Shown here one piece after another: positions 3,405 to 55,457 of a DNA stretch of 64,000 bases. The notes beneath the pieces are model-generated. The model searched no databases. It was not told the DNA's origin and was given only the letters and a program-made list of their open reading frames with translations. The position numbers were made by a program, and so were the translations under genes. The stretch lies in assembly GCF_001677475.2 (NCBI RefSeq), contig NZ_CP015229.1, one strand, 5' to 3'. Positions within the stretch are counted from its first letter, which is position 1. Each line of letters starts with the position of its first letter. This stretch comes from Escherichia coli (GTDB taxonomy: Bacteria; Pseudomonadota; Gammaproteobacteria; Enterobacterales; Enterobacteriaceae).

Positions 3405-3490
3405 GGGATTTGCCGGATGCGGCGTACACGCCTTATCCGGCCTACGATAGACACTTTGTAGGCCGGATACGCGCAGCGCATCCGGCAACC
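3405..3490. repeat. REP (repetitive extragenic palindrome) elements
   Basis: gccggatgcggcgtacacgccttatccggcctac and inverted copy gtaggccggatacgcgcagcgcatccggca. Confidence 0.8.
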
Positions 3491-3492
3491 GG

Positions 3493-5643
3493 TTAGTGGT
3501 GCGAAGAGATCTTCACGCCGCCTTCCGGGATTGGAACGTACGGCGTTTCTTTGTCAGTACGTTTGTCGCTGTTACGCACCTTCAGCCAGGTTTTGAAACC
3601 GTAGAAGATGATGCTGTACACCACAATCAGGAACAGAATACTCAGGCCTGCGTTGGTGTAGTTGTTCACAACGATGTGGTTCATGTTGGCAATCTGCTGC
3701 GCCGTCAGGTCAGTACCGTTAGCAATCTTCTCTTTGTACTGGCTTGCCATGTAGAAGAAGCCTTCCATCTGCGGGTTGGTGCTGAACAGTTTCAGACCCA
3801 GCGCCCAGGTGGTGCAGATAAGCAGCCATACCGCCGGAACAACAGTTACCCAGATGTATTGGGTGCGCTTCATCTTAATCAGCACAACGGTGCCCAGAAC
3901 CAGCGCTACGGCTGCCAGCATCTGGTTGGAGATACCGAACAGCGGCCACAGGCTCTTAACGCCGCCCAGCGGATCGACCACGCCCTGATACAGCAGGTAG
4001 CCCCACAGACCCACACAGCCCGCTGTACCGATGATACCGGCAACCAGAGAGTCGGTTTTTTTCAGGAACGGGATGAAGTTACCCAGCAGGTCTTGCAGCA
4101 TAAAGCGGCCAGAACGGGTACCGGCATCCAGCGCGGTCAGGATGAACAGGGCTTCGAACAGGATACCGAAGTGATACCAGAAGCCCATGTCAGCCATCGG
4201 CAGCACTTTGTGGAATACATGAGCGATACCTACCGCCAGCGTCGGCGCACCACCTGCACGGTTCAGGACAGAAGGCTCACCAATGTCTTTCGCGGTTTGC
4301 AGGATCTGCTCTGGCGAAATCACGAAGCCCCAGGAGCTGACAGTCGCCGCCGCGTGTGCGGTAACGTCTTTCAGCTGCGCCATGATGATTGGCGCGTTCT
4401 CGCCACCCATTTCATGCAGGTTAGGCATGGTGATGCCGAGGCCAGCAGGCGGGGTGTTCATCGCGAAGTAAAGACCCGGTTCGATGATGGACGCAGCAAC
4501 CAGCGCCATAATCGCCACGAAGGACTCCATCAGCATTGCGCCGTAGCCGATGAAACGCGCATCGGTTTCGTTAGCCAGCAGTTTCGGCGTCGTACCGGAA
4601 GAGATCAGCGCGTGGAAGCCAGATACCGCACCACAGGCGATGGTGATGAACAGGAACGGGAACAGAGCGCCTTTCCACAGCGGGCCAGTACCATCAATGT
4701 ACTGAGTCATCGCAGGCATTTTCAGTTCCGGGTTCAGCACCACGATACCCAGCGCCAGGCCGACGATAACGCCGATTTTCAGGAAGGTTGCCAGATAGTC
4801 GCGCGGTGCGAGGATCAGCCACACCGGCAGCAGTGCGGAAACAAACGCATAGCCAATCAGCGCGAAGGTAATGGTGGTGTCTTTAAAGGTCAGTGCCGGA
4901 CCCCAGTACGGATCGTGAGCAATCACGCCACCGAAGTAGATAGAGGCAACCAGCAGCACGATACCAATGACAGAGACTTCACCTACACGCCCCGGACGAA
5001 TAAAGCGCATGTAGATACCCATAAACAGCGCAATCGGTACGGTTGAGCAAACGGTGAAGACACCCCACGGACTTTCGGCCAGGGCTTTAACCACAATCAG
5101 CGCCAGGACGGCAAGGATGATGATCATGATTAAGAAACAGCCAAACAGCGCGATAGTCCCCGGTACTGGTCCCATCTCTTCTTTGATCATCTCACCGAGA
5201 GATGCGCCGTTACGGCGAGAGGAGATAAACAGCACCATAAAGTCCTGTACCGCACCGGCCAGCACTACCCCCGCCAGCAGCCACAGCGTGCCAGGCAGGT
5301 AGCCCATCTGCGCGGCGAGCACCGGACCAACCAGCGGACCGGCACCGGCGATAGCGGCGAAGTGGTGACCAAACAACACGTAACGGTTGGTCGGAACGTA
5401 GTTCAGACCGTCGTTGTTAATAACCGCAGGCGTCGCGCGCGTGGGGTCGAGTTTCATCACCTTCTGGGCGATGTACAGACTGTAGTAGCGATACGCCACC
5501 AGATACACCGACACAGAGGCGACCACGATCCACAGGGCGCTGACGTGCTCCCCCCGACGTAATGCAACTACCGCGAGGCAGAATGCACCGATGATTCCGA
5601 GAATCACCCAGGGTATGTGCTTGAATAGTTTTTTCGTATCCAT
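3493..5643 (-). CDS. btsT: Pyruvate/proton symporter BtsT (CstA family; YjiY)
   Basis: ORF track 3493..5658, 721 aa polytopic protein; start likely at [16 protein letters not shown]. Confidence 0.9.
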
Positions 5644-31764: not shown

Positions 31765-31851
31765 TGGTGCGAGGGGGGGGACTTGAACCCCCACGTCCGT
31801 AAGGACACTAACACCTGAAGCTAGCGCGTCTACCAATTCCGCCACCTTCGC
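31765..31851 (-). tRNA. leuV: tRNA-Leu (anticodon CAG)
   Basis: Reverse complement reads GCGAAGGTGGCGGAATTGGTAGACGCGCTAGCTTCAGGTGTTAGTGTCCTTACGGACGTGGGGGTTCAAGTCCCCCCCCTCGCACCA; encoded CCA. Confidence 0.95.
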
Positions 31852-31885
31852 ACAGTCATCTTACTTTTTTTGATATCGCCTCGTT

Positions 31886-31972
31886 TGGTGCGAGGGGGGG
31901 GACTTGAACCCCCACGTCCGTAAGAACACTAACACCTGAAGCTAGCGCGTCTACCAATTCCGCCACCTTCGC
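31886..31972 (-). tRNA. leuP: tRNA-Leu (anticodon CAG), one-base variant in variable arm
   Basis: Same 87-nt tRNA with aagaacac instead of aaggacac on plus strand. Confidence 0.95.
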
Positions 31973-32000
31973 CCAGTGCGAGCAATATCAACGTGGTTTT

Positions 32001-32087
32001 TGGTGCGAGGGGGGGGACTTGAACCCCCACGTCCGTAAGGACACTAACACCTGAAGCTAGCGCGTCTACCAATTCCGCCACCTTCGC
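32001..32087 (-). tRNA. leuQ: tRNA-Leu (anticodon CAG)
   Basis: Third tandem copy identical to the first. Confidence 0.95.
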
Positions 32088-32192: not shown

Positions 32193-32387
<195 letters not shown>

Positions 32388-39057: not shown

Positions 39058-39882
39058 TCAGGCGGTGAAAGTACCAATAAAGGTTTCTACTTTGCTGTCT
39101 TTGAATTTCTCAACAAGCAGATCACGAAATTCGTTAGCCATTTCTTCCTGCACCGCTTCCAGCTGAATAATGCGCAGAACCAGTACAGGACGATCGCCAG
39201 TGATAATGCTGAGGCGTAATTTAAACGGACGTTCTTTCAGACCTTCAAACGGAACGCATTTAAATTCAAATGCCACTGGCATAATGTCTTTGGTCTTCGC
39301 TTCGACAGACTCCATCAGGGAGCGTTTGCCGCTGAAGTCATTATCTTCAAAATCAGCGGTCTGGTTCGCTTCAATTGTGATTTTACGGATCGCCGCAGCC
39401 GCTTTGGTTGCCTGAATGGCGTCACCATTAGCATCAAAGCCCACAAGGTAGTCGGCCCAGTCTTCAATCCATTCTGCCAGTGACTTCTGGGAGTTACGCT
39501 CGCCGTTAACAGACAACAGGGCAGAGAACGGTGCTGTCTTTTTCAGTTTGAGAGTGGCGGTGTTATCTGCGTGACCTGGTTCATCAATAGTACCCAGGTT
39601 AAGCACACTGACTGCTCGCATATTATCGGCATCGATAAAGCAGCGGGTGCCTTCATCTGCAAGATCTTTAGAATAACGGGTAAAGTCATCGATGCTGGCA
39701 GTGGAAAGCGCACCACGGAAACGGAAGCGATTTAAATTAAATTTTTCCAGATCATGAATGCGGAAATTCTCAGGCAATGCCACAGCATCGGCACCAATCT
39801 TACTGATAATTTCATTAACACCCTGAGCAGAAATAAGGGCATGGATTTGATTAATTGCGGTTGCGTCTAAGTTCTGAGACAT
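39058..39882 (-). CDS. Hypothetical prophage protein (YfdQ-like, 274 aa)
   Basis: ORF track; good RBS GTGAGGA; length and position match yfdQ as recalled. Confidence 0.5.
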
Positions 39883-39947
39883 AATAAGTCCTCACTATAT
39901 AAAGATATTCAGTGATGAGATAAATAATCGGTTAATTAAGAACGATA

Positions 39948-40310
39948 TTAATGACCTGCTGCGCGGAGTTTTCCGTCAGGTTCACCGGCAAGAGTCAGTA
40001 ATTGTCCCTGGTCTTCCTGCAGAATAGTCAGGCGACCACCGCGATTGACATACATCGGCGTTTCGGTGGTGTCTTCTTCGGAAATTTTCCCGCGGTTAGT
40101 CGGGCGAACATATGAGAGTTTGTGTTTGATTTTCACACGGTTCTCATCAAATGGTTCGATTTCCAGGTTGAGTGAGACCTTACCTTTGGTTTTCGTGTTC
40201 ATCACACCTGAAGCGACTTCACTGAGAACTGCGCCGATTTTGGTTTCAAATACGCCGCCGTCCAGCTCCCCGATAAATGCCTGCACATCAGTACTGCGTT
40301 CGCTAGCCAT
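39948..40310 (-). CDS. Hypothetical prophage protein (YfdP-like, 120 aa)
   Basis: ORF track 39948..40496; internal ATG with GAGGAGCAGCAA RBS gives MASERSTDVQAFIGELDGGVFETK... Confidence 0.45.
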   Translation of the reverse strand: MASERSTDVQAFIGELDGGVFETKIGAVLSEVASGVMNTKTKGKVSLNLEIEPFDENRVKIKHKLSYVRPTNRGKISEEDTTETPMYVNRGGRLTILQEDQGQLLTLAGEPDGKLRAAGH

Positions 40311-40990
40311 TTTGCTGCTCCTCATCATATCGACCCTGCAAGGTCGGTTGGTTTCTCCACAAAACAGAGAAGAACACCTGCGGTGGCAGCCGCCCGGATG
40401 GATTGGGTTATGAGCCCGTCGTCCGGTGATGCTCTTCTCTGTTTTGTAAAAAGAGCGGTACCAGCCGGAAGCAAGTGTACAAACTGGTACCGCCAAAGCA
40501 GTGGCTGTTGTGGTGACCGGTGCTGATCTCCGGCTTGCGGTTATTTCAGACTCTCACGGGTGTTTAATTGCCCCGCCGAACAGCTCTTTTCCGCAATAGC
40601 TGCAATGTCTTTCGCGCATCAGCCTGCGCATTCACCACAACGCTGAGAGCACTTAGCCAGTTACGGCACCACACTTTGTCGCGGTTCCATAAATGCCCTC
40701 ATCGTTGCACCCTGGTCTCTTCCCAGGTGTCAAACCGAACCGCCACGCTGGTTAGGCGTCTTATCAGCATCATCATTGACTTGCACATTCCGGCTACCTG
40801 GTTTGTTTGCCCGAGCAAGGAGTGGATTGTCCCCTTTAACGTCCCCAGACCGCTAACGACGCATGTGCCATACGCCGTGTTACAACCAAATTTTGTTAGT
40901 ACCTTGTTTGTTGGTCTGGAAAGAAAGATAAAATGAAGTTGCGCATTATGCAAGTGTTTTTGTTGCGAGATATGCAATTTGATGGGTAAT

Positions 40991-41012
40991 GAAAAGCCAC
41001 CTTCGGGTGGCT
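40991..41012 (-). terminator. Putative intrinsic terminator downstream of cI
   Basis: agccacc-ttcg-ggtggct hairpin followed on minus strand by T-run. Confidence 0.5.
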
Positions 41013-41032
41013 AATTGATGAGGAGGTAAGGG

Positions 41033-41725
41033 TTAATTGTGTCGCTTAAGGGTTTGTGACTGGCTGATTAAGACCTTTCCAAAGACCATAAACCGGTGTT
41101 CATTTTCGCTGGTAATTCCCCATTCACGGTAAATCTGGTTATCAGAAATCACCAGTAGTTTGTCAGGTATCATTTGCAGTCGTTTGACATAAATTTTATC
41201 ATCAAAACCAAATACATAGATACCATCTCCATCAAACTGATTGATACTGACATCAACGAAGATGAGATCTCCTGGCTCAATGGTTGGACACATACTGTCC
41301 CCACGAACGTTGATTACTTTAATGTGATTTGCTGGCCGTCCGCCAAACATCGATACAGCATTATCAGTTCTGTATTCAATGGCATGAATCACATCAATGA
41401 CATCACCGCCCTGGATAAGGCCATTTCCCGCACTGGCACTGATATCCAGCATTTCAATACGGAATACATCCTTCACCTGCGCAACATCCTCACTAATACT
41501 GTTTTTACATACAGTATTACTTTTGAAGTCTGAGGTAAAGAGATCAGCAATATCAACACCTAAGCTCCTGGCAATATTACTCAGGGCTTGTTCAGTGAAT
41601 TGTTTCTGCTTACCTGTTTCCAGGCGCGAGATATTTGCCGCATCCACTCCTATTGCTTCAGCGAGATCGGCGATTTTCATGTTCTTCGCTTGGCGAAGTT
41701 GTCTGACTCGATTTCCTATGTTCAT
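41033..41725 (-). CDS. cI: CI-like phage repressor (XRE HTH + S24 LexA-like peptidase domain)
   Basis: ORF track 230 aa; N-terminal HTH VRQLRQAKNMKIADLAEAIGVDAANISRLETGK; C-terminal GDSMCPTIEPGD..KRL. Confidence 0.85.
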   Translation of the reverse strand: MNIGNRVRQLRQAKNMKIADLAEAIGVDAANISRLETGKQKQFTEQALSNIARSLGVDIADLFTSDFKSNTVCKNSISEDVAQVKDVFRIEMLDISASAGNGLIQGGDVIDVIHAIEYRTDNAVSMFGGRPANHIKVINVRGDSMCPTIEPGDLIFVDVSINQFDGDGIYVFGFDDKIYVKRLQMIPDKLLVISDNQIYREWGITSENEHRFMVFGKVLISQSQTLKRHN

Positions 41726-41822
41726 GCGTTTATTACATTTCTTTATTGCGCGTTAAGCAAATCAACTTGCGCAAAATATTTGCGTGAAATAATATGCTCA
41801 TCACGCAATATGTGGAGGTTAT
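41726..41822. promoter_or_regulatory. Immunity-region divergent promoters/operators between cI and cro
   Basis: Repeated TTGCGC/GCGCAA half-sites and inverted repeat ttgcgtga-N13-tcacgcaa. Confidence 0.55.
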
Positions 41823-42083
41823 ATGCAATCACCATTACGGAATGTGCGTAAAGCGCACGGATTTACTTTGCAGCATGTTGCTGCTGGCGTTCAGGTCAAT
41901 CCAGCGACGCTGAGTCGTATTGAAAGACTGGAACAAATTCCATCTATCGAGCTTGCAGAACGTCTGGCCAATTTTTTTAAGGGTGAAATCAGCGAAATGC
42001 AGATTCTTTATCCGGCACGTTTTCAATCTAGCCAAAACCAGAATGGGTTTAAACCACAGGAACAGGAGATAAGCCGTGGGTAA
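41823..42083 (+). CDS. cro: Cro-like HTH regulator
   Basis: ORF track 86 aa; HTH AHGFTLQHVAAGVQVNPATLSRIER; divergent from cI. Confidence 0.75.
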   Translation: MQSPLRNVRKAHGFTLQHVAAGVQVNPATLSRIERLEQIPSIELAERLANFFKGEISEMQILYPARFQSSQNQNGFKPQEQEISRG

Positions 42084-42627
42084 GCATCACTGGAAAGTGG
42101 AAAAACAGCCTGAGTGGTACGTGAAAGCTGTCAGAAAAACTATCGCGGCGTTGCCGGGGGGTTACGCTGAAGCTGCTGAGTGGCTGGATGTAACAGAGAA
42201 CGCTTTATTCAACCGCCTTCGTGCAGATGGCGATCAGATTTTCCCGCTGGGATGGGCAATGATTTTACAGCGCGCTGCTGGCACTCACTACATTGCGGAT
42301 GCTGTCGCACAGTCTGCTGGTGGGGTGTTTGTATCGCTTCCTGAAATTGAGGAAGTAGAGAACGCCGATATAAACCAGCGCCTGCTGGAAGTCATCGAAC
42401 AAATCGGGAGTTACTCAAAGCAGATTCGTTCGGCAATCGAAGATGGGGTAGTGGAGCCACACGAGCAGACAGCAATTAATGATGAGTTGTATCTGTCGAT
42501 TTCGAAGCTCCAGGAGCATGCGGCACTGGTCTACAAAATTTTCTGCGCTCCAGAAAAGAGTGACGCCCGCGAGTGTGCAGCTCCGGGCGTCGTGGCGTTT
42601 TGTGTCTGTGGAGAAACTAACGCATGA
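42076..42627 (+). CDS. Putative CII-like early regulatory protein
   Basis: ORF track 183 aa directly after cro; family assignment is a guess. Confidence 0.35.
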   Translation: MGKHHWKVEKQPEWYVKAVRKTIAALPGGYAEAAEWLDVTENALFNRLRADGDQIFPLGWAMILQRAAGTHYIADAVAQSAGGVFVSLPEIEEVENADINQRLLEVIEQIGSYSKQIRSAIEDGVVEPHEQTAINDELYLSISKLQEHAALVYKIFCAPEKSDARECAAPGVVAFCVCGETNA

Positions 42628-42952
42628 ACAGTTTAACGGCAAATAACCGTTTGTCGCAACAGCTGGTGGTCAGCGTCTCTGAACACCTGTTGTTACGGCA
42701 TGAATGCAGATTACCAAATCACCAGGCTGTAAGTAACCACAGAGAACTTTACCTGACTGTGGGGGGCGAGTTGTGCAGGAACTTAACCGCTGGTTTCGTG
42801 ACGGAAGAGGGCTTTATGTTCATGTTATTCGTTGGGAACCAGAAACACAGCGCGTTATCTATCTTCGCAAAGACTACCCGCATGAGTGCTTTAGTCCTTT
42901 GTGGAAATTCAGGCGTGATTTTGTTGAGTGTGACGGACCACCAACACATTGA
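42624..42952 (+). pseudogene. Putative frameshifted early gene (~109 aa if restored) interrupted at a G6 tract
   Basis: ATG at 42624 overlaps upstream stop (ATGA); at G-run 42761-42766 the protein-like reading moves to another frame (VQELNRWFRDGRGLYVHVIRWEPETQRVIYLRKDYPHE...) ending TGA 42950-42952. Confidence 0.35.
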
Positions 42953-43229
42953 TTCTGCCATTCCGGGACGTTACACTGTTCAGGCACCTTATAAAACGGG
43001 TGCCGGGCGTGGAAACCCGGAATTCACCAAAGCGCACAACCGCGCTCTTGCGGTTTTTTTGTGTCATGAGCAGCATTACGCCCAAATTATGGTGGGGCGT
43101 GCAGGGCCAACTTCGGTTGGGCCGGGTTCTTTGGTGACCGGTATTTCCACCCCTGTACGTCTCACCACCAATAAGGTCGTGGAAAGCCTTGGTGGTGAGT
43201 TATTAAAAATCACCAAAGAGGCTGCCATC

Positions 43230-43775
43230 ATGGCTACGATCCCAACCCTCACTCAACCTGAAATTGCCATCGTTGATGGTCAGGTTGTTACTTCATCCCT
43301 GGCTGTTGCCAACTTCTTCTCCAAACGTCATGACGATGTACTGAAAAAGATCCGCACGCTTGAATGCTCAGCATCATTCACTGCCCGCAATTTTTCGGTG
43401 AGTGATTACACTGATTGCACAGGTCGCAAACTTCATTGCTACCAAATCACACGCGACGGTTTTGCGTTTCTTGCTATGGGTTTCACGGGTAAACGTGCTG
43501 CCCAGTTCAAAGAGGCATATATCAATGCCTTTAACCAGATGGAGAAACAGCTTTCAAAGCCCGCTGTACCGAGCGACGTTGCACATAACGCCAGCGTTCT
43601 CTGTTCCTACATTTCATCAATTCATCAGGTCTGGCTGCAGCAGCTTTATCCTATGTTGGCAAAAGCCGAATCTCCGCTGGCTGTTAGCTTATATGATTAT
43701 ATTAATGATGCTTCGGCGCTGGCCTGCCTCATAAATTTGTCGCTGAACCCTTCAGAGGTAAGGGGGCGCAAATGA
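43230..43775 (+). CDS. rha: Rha-family phage regulatory protein
   Basis: In-frame ATG with AAGAGG RBS inside ORF-track 42624..43775; MATIPTLTQPEIAIVDGQVVTSSLAVANFFSKRHDDVLKKI matches Rha domain. Confidence 0.65.
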   Translation: MATIPTLTQPEIAIVDGQVVTSSLAVANFFSKRHDDVLKKIRTLECSASFTARNFSVSDYTDCTGRKLHCYQITRDGFAFLAMGFTGKRAAQFKEAYINAFNQMEKQLSKPAVPSDVAHNASVLCSYISSIHQVWLQQLYPMLAKAESPLAVSLYDYINDASALACLINLSLNPSEVRGRK

Positions 43776-51294: not shown

Positions 51295-51594
51295 AAAAAT
51301 TCCTTAATACTGATAACTTGGCGCACTATACACACGTTCCTGAAGAAAGCTATAGTTTTTTGATGGGGTTGAAGATGGCTGGATGTCTAAAATAAACATT
51401 GCTTCATATGTTCAACTATGCGTTAATGATTGCGTCGGTTTGAAGAACAGACGATATACGAAGTAGTTTACTAAAGCAGTTCTCATTTCAGGTGTTATTC
51501 ACTTATTCCTTCTTTGAGTCTCTCCAATTAAGTACGAAGTCGTTTCTGTTATACAAGCCATTTATGCCGAAAGGCTCAAGTTAAGGAATGTAGA

Positions 51595-51810
51595 ATGTCA
51601 AATAAAATGACTGGTTTAGTAAAATGGTTTAACGCTGATAAAGGTTTTGGCTTTATTTCTCCTGTTGATGGTAGTAAAGATGTGTTTGTGCATTTTTCTG
51701 CGATTCAGAATGATAATTTTCGAACCTTATTTGAAGGTCAAAAGGTTACCTTCTCTGTAGAGAGTGGTGCTAAAGGTCCTGCAGCAGCAAATGTCATAAT
51801 TACTGATTAA
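51595..51810 (+). CDS. cspB: Cold-shock protein, CspB-like
   Basis: ORF track 71 aa; [38 protein letters not shown]; divergent from cspF as in Qin. Confidence 0.85.
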
Positions 51811-52093
51811 AATTAATAGTTTGTCTGTATACGATAACGAAGAAGGCTGATGCCTGAGTGGAGATACAGACAGAGTGGTGAATATTGGATCTCTTTAATA
51901 AATAGTAAGGAGATCCAATACATGAAACAATGGCCAGCATATTTGGCAATAACTTAATCAGGAAAAGTATGCTAACCATTGTGGTGAAGTGCAGGTTTGC
52001 TGCATGAATAGTTTTACAGCAGAAGCTAACTGCTAGCATAGCAAAACAAAGTGCGTAAGTGGATGACTCCCACAAAAAGCACCACAATATTAA

Positions 52094-54683: not shown

Positions 54684-55045
54684 ATTAATATTAAATCGGA
54701 TTATTTTTAGCGCTGAATGTGAAATTTAAATAAAAAGGACTCTTCCATGAGTCAAAATCCTTGAAATCTTAAGGGTAAGATAAAAGGTCATTAGACAGAA
54801 TGACACGTTTTATTAATAAATAAAGCTATTGTTTCATTCGTGTGTTTTTCTTTACAAAAGTAATCCTTGCTATGGTTGGTTAATCATGCGTTAATGGTGT
54901 TCTGGTTTGTTACAAAATTATCTGAAGCAGTCATTGTTATAATTTTATTATTTGTACCTCTTGAGATTTCCTTGTTGGTTTTTCTCTCTGATATTTTTTT
55001 CGGACCATTCTGCCCAAGGGCTAACTTCTTCAAAAGGTAATAATG

Positions 55046-55258
55046 ATGTCTAACAAAATGACTGGTTTAGTGAAATGGTTTAACCCTGAAAAAGGTTTTG
55101 GTTTCATCACGCCGAAAGATGGTAGCAAAGATGTGTTTGTCCATTTCTCAGCTATTCAGAGCAACGATTTCAAAACGTTAACTGAGAATCAGGAAGTCGA
55201 ATTTGGTATTGAGAACGGACCTAAAGGCCCCGCGGCTGTTCATGTTGTGGCACTTTGA
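55046..55258 (+). CDS. cspI: Cold-shock protein, CspI-like
   Basis: ORF track 55043..55258; [45 protein letters not shown]. Confidence 0.85.
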
Positions 55259-55457
55259 GGTAGAAAATATTACAAACCATATTCACTTTAGATGCCCGTG
55301 TTGCCATGGTTCTCAGTATAGAACATCATCTTTTGATGTTTCTGACAGGAATCCTTTCGGGGCAAAATGTATCTTTTGTAAATCAATGATGATTACATTT
55401 GATAATATTTCACAATACTTAAATGTTAGCCGTCTGTCGTTAGATTTAAGAAAGTGA
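55242..55457 (+). CDS. Hypothetical small zinc-ribbon protein overlapping cspI 3' end
   Basis: ORF track 55203..55457; internal Met gives [26 protein letters not shown]...CIFCKS. Confidence 0.3.

Follow-up and report, generated by a model that had tools for sequence, protein, structure and literature searches.

What occupies the 722 bp (40311-41032) that separate a cI-type repressor gene from the first early-left gene of an Escherichia coli prophage, at the place where lambda carries pL and N? The question is raised by a stretch of 64,000 nucleotides of contig NZ_CP015229.1 (assembly GCF_001677475.2), hereafter the window, in which a sequence-only reading had noticed no convincing open reading frame (ORF) in this gap and had suggested that it may encode a structured RNA or an unusual regulatory region. 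The gap begins at the stop of the repressor gene (41033..41725, minus strand; HTH and Peptidase_S24) and ends at the ATG of a yfdP-like gene (39948..40310, minus strand), which yfdQ and then yfdR follow in the early-left operon; on the other side of cI, a plus-strand cro-like gene begins at 41823. The gap is best explained as an untranslated leader, made up of a series of non-coding RNA modules, at the promoter-proximal end of the early-left (pL) operon in a lambdoid prophage of the mEp460/SfV/ST64B type. Its central element, C (40507..40641, minus strand), is a member of a widespread, previously uncatalogued family of tRNA-like phage RNAs, of which no description was found in the literature, searched by sequence and by topic. 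The earlier suggestion was thus borne out, as the position holds no N-like ORF, an operator/promoter pair and covarying RNA structures; the absence of a coding signal, the anatomy, the covariation, the family and the genomic contexts are direct observations.

Protein coding was examined in the relatives of the gap. The only ORFs overlapping it are mechanical (122 aa on the plus strand, 92 aa on the minus strand, several of less than 50 aa and a TTG-extended yfdP), and a Pfam search gave zero matches for any of them. The 122-aa frame, listed as a hypothetical protein in the mEp460 record, contains 2-6 in-frame stops in relatives; the indels within it are mostly not multiples of three, and its substitutions are even over the codon positions (e.g. 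38/41/36). Protein coding is ruled out by these stops, frame-breaking indels, evenly spread substitutions and missing Pfam matches: no ORF of the gap is conserved in relatives, no codon-position bias was found, and the conserved protein-coding gene that the sequence-only reading had named as its alternative did not emerge from homology. Two small ORFs on opposite strands over a long hairpin of the region (E, below) match PHROGs of unknown function and are read as ORF-caller artefacts. The hypothetical ORFs that depositors placed in the gap (mEp460 and phiSTEC1575-Stx2k records) disagree in strand and frame between records, and the NCBI pipeline leaves most of the gap unannotated in E. coli genomes.

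Separate pieces of the gap show separate distributions in BLAST searches, indicating a mosaic of modules, whose order along the RNA (minus strand) is AB, G, C, a spacer, D, E and F. Identity of the region is 100% with phage PhiR63_1 and 98.5% with mEp460, and 630 nt of it fold more stably than shuffled sequences on both strands (z = -4.5 on the minus strand, z = -4.4 on the plus strand). An Rfam scan, which had been proposed earlier as a check, returned nothing in the region, either at gathering score over the whole window or at E 10 over 39800-41900, and ARAGORN called neither a tRNA nor a tmRNA there. The decisive evidence came from another of the proposed checks, covariation in homologues. 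The inverted repeats that had been noticed first belong to D and E and are the least informative parts of the region; the main elements AB, G and C had gone unnoticed.

Module C is present once in the 64-kb window and scores 45.3 bits (E 6.8e-10) with covariance model R1. Its closing stem pairs GUUGUGGUGA (40632-40641) with UCACCACAAC (40507-40516) and is followed by the junction AAU, hairpin H1 (GCGCA-GGCUGA-UGCGC, 40614-40629), a folded variable insert of 79 nt (40535-40613) and hairpin H2 (GCCGG-AGAUCAGCA-CCGGU, 40516-40534), which abuts the closing stem. The single-sequence minimum-energy fold of the window copy reproduces the same structure. BLAST matched both ends of C and left its middle variable; a 40-nt stretch is more than 88% identical across very different phages (lambdoid, the P22-like HK620, P1, and many others, virulent and temperate, that infect Klebsiella, Erwinia, Cronobacter, Edwardsiella, Aeromonas, Stenotrophomonas and Pseudomonas), whose genomes measure ~38 to ~160 kb. 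A search with the exact H1 18-mer found at least 120 viral loci and 93 species-representative bacterial genomes, this core being present across Gamma- and Betaproteobacteria. The members follow one plan: a variable closing stem ending in GUG/CAC, AAU, H1, the middle, and H2 (GCCGG-AGAUCAGCA-CCGGC) abutting the 3' strand. A hairpin of 21 nt is almost invariant; the middle varies from 6 to more than 400 nt, and the overall length has a median of 126 nt (range 58-520). The 18-mer was also found in genome contigs of eight assemblies (L235, L241, L244, L251, L255, L259, L295 and L305) labelled Treponema, Melainabacteria, Peptococcaceae, Microtetraspora, Bacteroidales, Verrucomicrobiota, Pyrinomonadaceae and Phycisphaerales; these may be mis-binned phage contigs or reflect a still wider range.

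Covariation was measured in 53 distinct C sequences from which the middle had been cut out. In the closing stem, the core that covaries comprises 7 bp (columns 9-15 with 62-68), and six pairs of the stem show double changes; pairs 9-68 to 12-65 have 7-13 double changes each and are unpaired in at most 6 of the 53 sequences. The stem of H2 covaries as well (GCUGG/CCAGC, GCAGG/CCUGC, GACGG/CCGUC). The covariation score was 0.176, compared to 0.084 in shuffles (none of 500 as high) and no more than 0.087 in slid-partner controls. As the sequence used for searching, H1 had no room to vary among these sequences; a variant, GCACA/UGUGC, occurs in P1, where the covariance model finds several tandem diverged copies of C between tRNA-Thr and tciA. 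The loops of H1 and H2 could kiss (GCUGA/UCAGC) in 98% of the sequences, but H1 is fixed by the way they were collected and the STnc100-type relatives lose the complementarity. Two other identities for C were considered and rejected: a hammerhead-like core around CUGAUG, whose junction strands misfit by eye and on which the Rfam ribozyme models are silent, and integron attC or mobile-element ends, whose core motifs misfit and against which strand-specific RNA features argue.

These strand-specific features point to the minus strand as the RNA strand. A cI-type gene lies upstream of C and is co-directional with it in 57 of 58 loci, a yfdP gene downstream in 27 of 27; the tRNAs and terminators found in relatives share the strand of C; and G-U pairs are in excess over A-C pairs (21 vs 9). 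The same strand bias, together with the unconserved ORFs, the even codon positions, the clashing annotations and the mostly blank NCBI record, argues against reading the gap as a DNA-level element (an operator array, an origin, a recombination or packaging site) or as a set of small unannotated protein genes. Operators and pL do fill the cI-proximal ~100 bp, and hypothetical ORFs (mEp460, phiSTEC1575-Stx2k) and two PHROG matches over E exist, yet we regard such a reading of the gap as very improbable.

The two modules preceding C are structured RNAs in their own right. AB (40702..40891, minus strand) is a conserved element of ~190 nt, present once in the window, in which invariant blocks of 20-25 nt alternate with hairpins carrying compensatory changes. 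It includes a hairpin CGGCG-UAUGGCACAUG-CGUCG (within 40856-40878), an invariant block CCAGGUAGCCGGAAUGUGCAAG (40780-40801) and a hairpin CCUGG-GAAGAGA-CCAGG (40711-40727). Copies of 66-80% identity are found in P1/P7 (directly after tRNA-Ile, before ban), in phiV10/SPN1S/Tyrion-type phages, where AB precedes tRNA-Arg or a C element, and in one Klebsiella and one Stenotrophomonas phage. The compensatory sets are CCUGG/CCAGG, CCUCG/CGAGG and GCCGG/CCGGC; AACC/GGUU vs CACC/GGUG; and CGGCG/CGUCG vs CGGCA/UGCCG. A long-range pairing proposed by RNAalifold was rejected, as it rests on invariant columns only, whereas a local hairpin in its place has one compensatory change. AB is optional: a promoter replaces it at locus L031, and ST64B-type phages carry a different leader module.

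G (40645..40700, minus strand) is a stem module in which GAGGGCAUUUA (40690-40700) pairs with UAAGUGCUCUC (40645-40655) around a 34-nt insert, ending a few nt before C. In general form, (C/A)AGUGCUCU.. just before C pairs with a partner 34-95 nt upstream. A G helix of at least 9 bp is present in 45 of 82 distinct family loci, compared to a mean of 4.05 (maximum 10) in shuffled controls, and occurs in 35 distinct covarying versions, e.g. GAUUGCAUUG/CAGUGCAAUC and AUGAGUAUUG/CAGUACUCAU. T-arm-like hairpins lie inside some of the G inserts. The 3' strand of the helix contains a box upstream of C (40645-40652 in the window) that reads UGCUCUUU in most members and UGCUCUCA here, and that resembles the boxA of rrn and lambda; the boxA reading is undermined, as the box is one strand of a freely changing, covarying helix.

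The tRNA-like character of C, G and some neighbouring modules, some of them with T-arm sequences, and the mosaic build of a region whose parts have separate histories could be taken to mean that the whole is a functionless, decayed remnant of a phage tRNA array, spread by recombination. Compensatory changes preserve the helices, however, phages whose hosts belong to different bacterial classes share 18-21 invariant nt, and the same module order recurs in unrelated phages; decay of this kind therefore has very little chance of being the answer.

The genomic contexts of the family include points of transcriptional control. C lies downstream of a cI-type repressor gene, and co-directional with it, in 58 of 211 loci, with 48 distinct repressor sequences. 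At least 21 loci place it between the Q antiterminator gene and the holin-lysozyme-Rz genes, with NinG and RusA further upstream of Q, a position that corresponds to the late leader, the region of 6S RNA and tR' in lambda. The remaining loci include tRNA arrays, and the flanking genes are nearly always on the strand of C. At L031 the closing stem is preceded, at a distance of ~10 nt, by a promoter (TTGACA-18-TACATT) that has an operator-like palindrome, which puts C at the very start of the early-left transcript. In P1 (L006, AF234172) the interval between tRNA-Thr and tciA contains, at 3484-4117 on the minus strand of the locus, a tandem series of three to four RNAs of the C family or resembling STnc100; they partly overlap the annotated ORFs upl and plp on the opposite strand, which may be mis-annotations. 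Klebsiella phage Madison (L005, 396-3609) has 3.2 kb without an annotated gene next to tRNA-Met, in which there are a C element of 236 nt, motifs resembling T arms and, at 994-1208, a match to STnc100 that exceeds the threshold; this stretch looks like a long array of tRNA-like non-coding RNAs.

A position directly behind pL might suggest an RNA that acts in cis. C, or AB together with C, could bind the transcribing RNA polymerase or Nus factors on emerging, as an antitermination or anti-Rho element like put of HK022, and let transcription pass D and later terminators in place of the N protein. The put RNA has two stem-loops (about 70 nt) and renders RNA polymerase resistant to terminators by way of the beta' zinc-binding domain. 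The place is that of putL, a terminator follows immediately, no N ORF is present, and C stands within co-directional operons after 48 distinct repressors; an exact 18-nt H1 core kept in Beta- and Gammaproteobacteria would be expected for contact with a universal host machine, and the box before C resembles boxA. HK022 put, the lambda nutL/N leader and the lambda pR' 6S/tR' region likewise put a structured RNA right after a major promoter and before terminators. Nevertheless, no significant similarity to putL was found, only words at chance level (ACGGCG..CAUGCGUCG..AGCG, putL vs the AB hairpin); the AB profile found nothing in HK022, and model R1 nothing there below E = 2.3. Whereas put has copies after both pL and pR, the window has a single AB and a single C and no counterpart on the pR side; unlike lambda, it has no boxB and no N gene between pL and yfdP. 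At the late leader a Q gene lies just upstream and makes C dispensable for antitermination, the box resembling boxA changes freely with its helix, and many members sit flush between tRNAs in the arrays of virulent phages. We consider an antiterminator of this kind unlikely.

The relation of C to tRNAs is seen in both form and position. Its 7-bp closing stem stacks without a spacer on the 5-bp H2, giving 12 bp as in the acceptor/T arm of a tRNA; the second hairpin stands at the position of the D arm, and in place of an anticodon arm, which C lacks, there is the folded variable insert. O157 typing phage 9 shares the leader (...UAAGUGCUCUCAGCGUU) but has tRNA-Arg in the place taken by C in the window; at L024 only 8 nt separate C from tRNA-Met on its 5' side and 3 nt from tRNA-Ala on its 3' side, and at other loci C lies just ahead of tRNA-Phe, tRNA-Gly or tRNA-Pro. 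A tRNA on the same strand was found within 400 nt of 30 of the 211 distinct C elements, compared to 1.3% of random positions in the same loci. The triplet CCA starts 0-3 nt past the stem in 22 of 53 sequences (9.9 expected), in the window 2 nt after the extended closing stem, and 34 of the 53 have U at position -1. Species 1 and 2 of T4 (rnaC and rnaD), two stable RNAs whose annotated place is the end of the tRNA cluster in T4, are comparable in that C, too, is found in or beside tRNA arrays; we know of no function for either. Homology to them was tried and dropped, model R1 finding no similarity.

Such mimicry could also make C a decoy or sponge that offers its variable inserts to host enzymes acting on tRNAs (anticodon nucleases of defence systems, RNase P, modification or repair enzymes), made as soon as infection begins to protect translation. 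The stacked acceptor-like and T-like stems, the tRNA slots and the enrichment beside tRNAs fit this idea, as do the predicted expression from the earliest promoter and the occurrence of C in very different phages, virulent and temperate; a preprint reports that the tRNA-Tyr of T5 counters the tRNA-targeting defence retron 78 (bioRxiv 10.1101/2023.03.15.532788), which counts in its favour. On the other side, the insert of the window copy has no mimic of an anticodon stem-loop, the inserts differ completely among members (that of L080, the minimal member of 58 nt, has only 6 nt), and no defence or anti-defence gene consistently adjoins C, so that we judge a decoy distinctly unlikely. The passage of D without N and the near-invariance of H1 keep both the decoy and the antiterminator in play.

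Among known systems, C is close to STnc100 (RF02076). Both follow a common plan: a closing stem ending in ...GGUG, AAU, a hairpin, a variable middle, a hairpin abutting CACC..., a spacer and an intrinsic terminator. The consensus of STnc100 runs GGUGAAU, hairpin, ..., CCGGGAGGCACCCGG, CACC; its hairpins are CCCCC...GGGG and CCGGGAGGCACCCGG, those of C GCGCAGGCUGAUGCGC and GCCGGAGAUCAGCACCGGC. In ST64B an STnc100-like element (35.1 bits, below the threshold of 47) is orthologous in position to C and is followed by homologous D, E and yfdP. Since the Rfam model misses the window copy, C is a sister type of STnc100 and not a member, with a far wider host range. PasD is an abundant Hfq-associated prophage small RNA (sRNA) of enteropathogenic E. 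coli to which STnc100 is related by structure (bioRxiv 10.64898/2026.05.13.724894), and the STnc100/PasD prophage sRNAs are treated in further published work (PMC12370729). All three are prophage leader or intergenic RNAs; the published copies of STnc100 and PasD lie in the late region near stx or Q, that of the window at pL.

By architecture, the nearest relatives of C are RNAs that are freed from longer transcripts by RNase P: the C4 antisense RNA of P1/P7 (RF01695) and the CI RNA of P4 resemble C in that paired 5' and 3' ends enclose two hairpins. The C4 copy of the window itself ends in UGGUG...CACCACCAAU, the C family in UGUGGUG...CACCACA-N-CCAAAUC. C4 differs by a closing stem of 17 bp, compared to 7 bp, by lacking a variable insert and by having loops that are antisense determinants against the ant leader; its Rfam model (clan CL00128) matches 43085-43172 and nothing in the region studied here. 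Hartmann and colleagues reportedly described in 1995 that C4 and CI are freed from longer transcripts by RNase P. ROOL and GOLLD are multi-domain non-coding phage RNAs that often adjoin tRNA genes; to our knowledge no function has been assigned to them. Their Rfam models have no match in the region, and unlike them the modules AB, G and C occur separately in different proteobacterial phages. C is best filed with the prophage leader sRNAs of the STnc100 type, with tRNA-like and C4-like architecture.

Transcription of these modules would start at the cI-proximal end of the gap. An intrinsic terminator of the repressor gene (AGCCACCCGAAGGTGGCT then TTTCATT; 40995..41012, minus strand) was found by the terminator scan and keeps its position in ST64B and Eeyore; it is the terminator-like hairpin noticed at the outset. 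It is followed by two 16-bp repeats, GTTGCGCATTATGCAA (40938-40953) and GTTGCGAGATATGCAA (40962-40977), which form a direct repeat of the type TTGC-N7-GCAA and would make up the left operator (OL, 40938..40977). The interval from cI to cro contains a third site, also perfect (41746-41760), and the repeats probably act as operators. The putative pL (40925..40953, minus strand) has a -35 hexamer TTGCAT (40953-40948), a 17-nt spacer and a -10 hexamer TATCTT (40930-40925), with a predicted transcription start near 40918. Its -10 and -35 recur in ST64B, phiNP and Eeyore despite differing downstream leaders: the -10 is TATCTT in phiNP and Eeyore and TAATTT in ST64B, and the -35 overlapping the operator is kept in all three. 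We call this promoter inferred because the consensus promoter scan did not list it.

Beyond C lies a single-stranded spacer, AGCCACUGCUUUG (40494..40506, minus strand), which contains CCA and occupies the position of an RprA-like motif in some relatives; it could serve as a base-pairing seed. In Eeyore (L233, 757-855) the spacer carries AUUGCUGUGUGUAGUCUU(U/G)G, a match to a 3' portion that is conserved in RprA, an sRNA of the host (Rfam 41.2 bits, E 0.009), and an RprA-like motif between scaffold and terminator was also seen in phiNP and in Stenotrophomonas phage BUCT708 (L329). RprA mimicry was discarded: of 201 family members, no more than 11 are followed by a 17-mer resembling RprA, and the window lacks it.

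D (40448..40493, minus strand) is an intrinsic terminator homologous to that of phiNP, an inverted repeat in which GCGGUACCAG, a 19-nt loop and CUGGUACCGC are followed by UCUUUUU. Its stem is GC-rich, of 10-13 bp (13 bp in the fold), and the terminator scan missed it because its loop exceeds 8 nt. The ggtaccag ... ctggtacc repeat seen earlier is its stem, with arms at 40455-40464 and 40484-40493 (10 nt, 100% complementary). Terminator-like hairpins are enriched behind members of the family, being found within 170 nt downstream of 65 of 166 members, compared to 10 of 166 random segments. An 11-nt segment of the C insert, AAAAGAGCUGU (40580-40590), is complementary with one mismatch to the 3' arm and U-tract of D (40449-40459), which could be an antiterminator pairing or chance.

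E (40359..40447, minus strand) has a closing stem of ~23 bp and two small inner hairpins in a three-way junction. It contains the repeat acaaaacagagaag, whose copies had been placed about 60 nt apart: the arms (40359-40383 and 40423-40447; 25 nt, 84% complementary) have perfect outer 14-mers ~60 nt apart. E folds with -58.9 kcal/mol (z = -5.2; none of 200 shuffles as stable). ST64B, phiNP and Eeyore retain both E and yfdP; their copies of E show a few compensatory changes, and coding is excluded by the large indels of the inner hairpin. Standing just ahead of the first early-left gene, E may be an RNase III site or may control translation, and it recalls the leader of lambda N, which carries a hairpin with an RNase III site. 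The gap closes with F (40308..40346, minus strand), composed of a hairpin CGACCUUGCAGGGUCG (40331-40346) and, at 40308-40323, the Shine-Dalgarno sequence (GAGGAG) and start codon (ATG) of the yfdP-like gene. In the K-12 cryptic prophage CPS-53 (L328, 5248-5604) the last ~30 nt before yfdP are identical, and C, D and E are replaced.

Taken as one transcription unit, the modules suggest a way of working that we favour with moderate confidence: a non-coding RNA would be transcribed from pL as far as D and undergo processing of the tRNA type, leaving C to D as a stable, trans-acting RNA. When the repressor leaves OL, transcription from near 40918 would run through AB, G and C to D, giving a non-coding RNA of ~470 nt. 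The tRNA-processing machinery would excise C, RNase P probably acting at its 5' end, and leave a stable RNA of ~190 nt (C, spacer and D) with the layout of STnc100 and PasD, which would act in trans as these relatives are thought to do. Read-through of D would continue via hairpin E into yfdP, yfdQ and yfdR.

Several results weigh against this scheme of a processed, trans-acting RNA. Not only did the consensus scan fail to list pL, but the promoter, start site, processing and stability of the leader RNA are all predicted. Neither ARAGORN nor the Rfam tRNA model (RF00005) called C a tRNA, its 9-nt H2 loop AGAUCAGCA lacks the T-loop consensus, and CCA is found in only 42% of C members. The STnc100 model (gathering threshold 47 bits) has no match in 39800-41900 at E 10 and none in the window at gathering score, so that homology to STnc100 rests on architecture and position. 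The fold of C to D is not unusually stable (z = -1.5), and a classical seed is not evident, because the insert is folded and the spacer of the window lacks the motif of the relatives. An efficient D would demand antitermination for the early-left genes, for which we identified no mechanism, and the near-invariance of H1 over Beta- and Gammaproteobacteria exceeds what a passive scaffold needs.

The window contains other RNAs on which the same searches reported. IsrK (42984-43060, plus strand; 67.9 bits) and the C4 match mentioned above (43085-43172, plus strand; 83.6 bits) fall inside a 383-aa ORF (42624..43775) called 'regulatory protein Rha' in mEp460; the segment looks like an antirepressor control module of the P1 immI type, and the annotated ORF probably extends too far in the 5' direction. 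Two matches to the cspA thermoregulator 5' untranslated region (51434-51873, 159 bits; 54889-55304, 111 bits; plus strand) lie downstream of the prophage immunity and replication genes and may be parts of cold-shock genes carried by the prophage. Some 8 kb to the left of the region there are three tRNA-Leu(CAG) genes in tandem (31765-32087, minus strand) and an naRNA4 match (32227-32309, plus strand).

For the biology of E. coli prophages, the reach of these observations is considerable: among the complete E. coli genomes searched, 2664 of 5426 (about half) carry some part of this unannotated region. The C family, absent from Rfam and from genome annotation despite its spread in phages and prophages of Gamma- and Betaproteobacteria, occupies both key control points of lambdoid phages, the early-left and the late leader, as well as tRNA arrays. 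Its recognition exposes likely mis-annotated hypothetical proteins in several phage records, including upl and plp of P1, and raises the question of how phages without N pass a terminator placed directly after pL. It also links the sRNAs STnc100 and PasD to a tRNA-like architecture. Tentatively, and as a possibility well short of a probable one, C may be a universal phage RNA chassis that docks its invariant hairpins onto RNA polymerase or Nus factors, RNase P or a tRNA-targeting nuclease, with the insert tuning a second activity, AB-G-C-D serving as a host-takeover RNA and STnc100 and PasD belonging to the same superfamily. If so, that takeover RNA would be made from the first phage promoter to fire, and a chassis docking on RNA polymerase or Nus factors would represent a second class of RNA antiterminators, unrelated to put.

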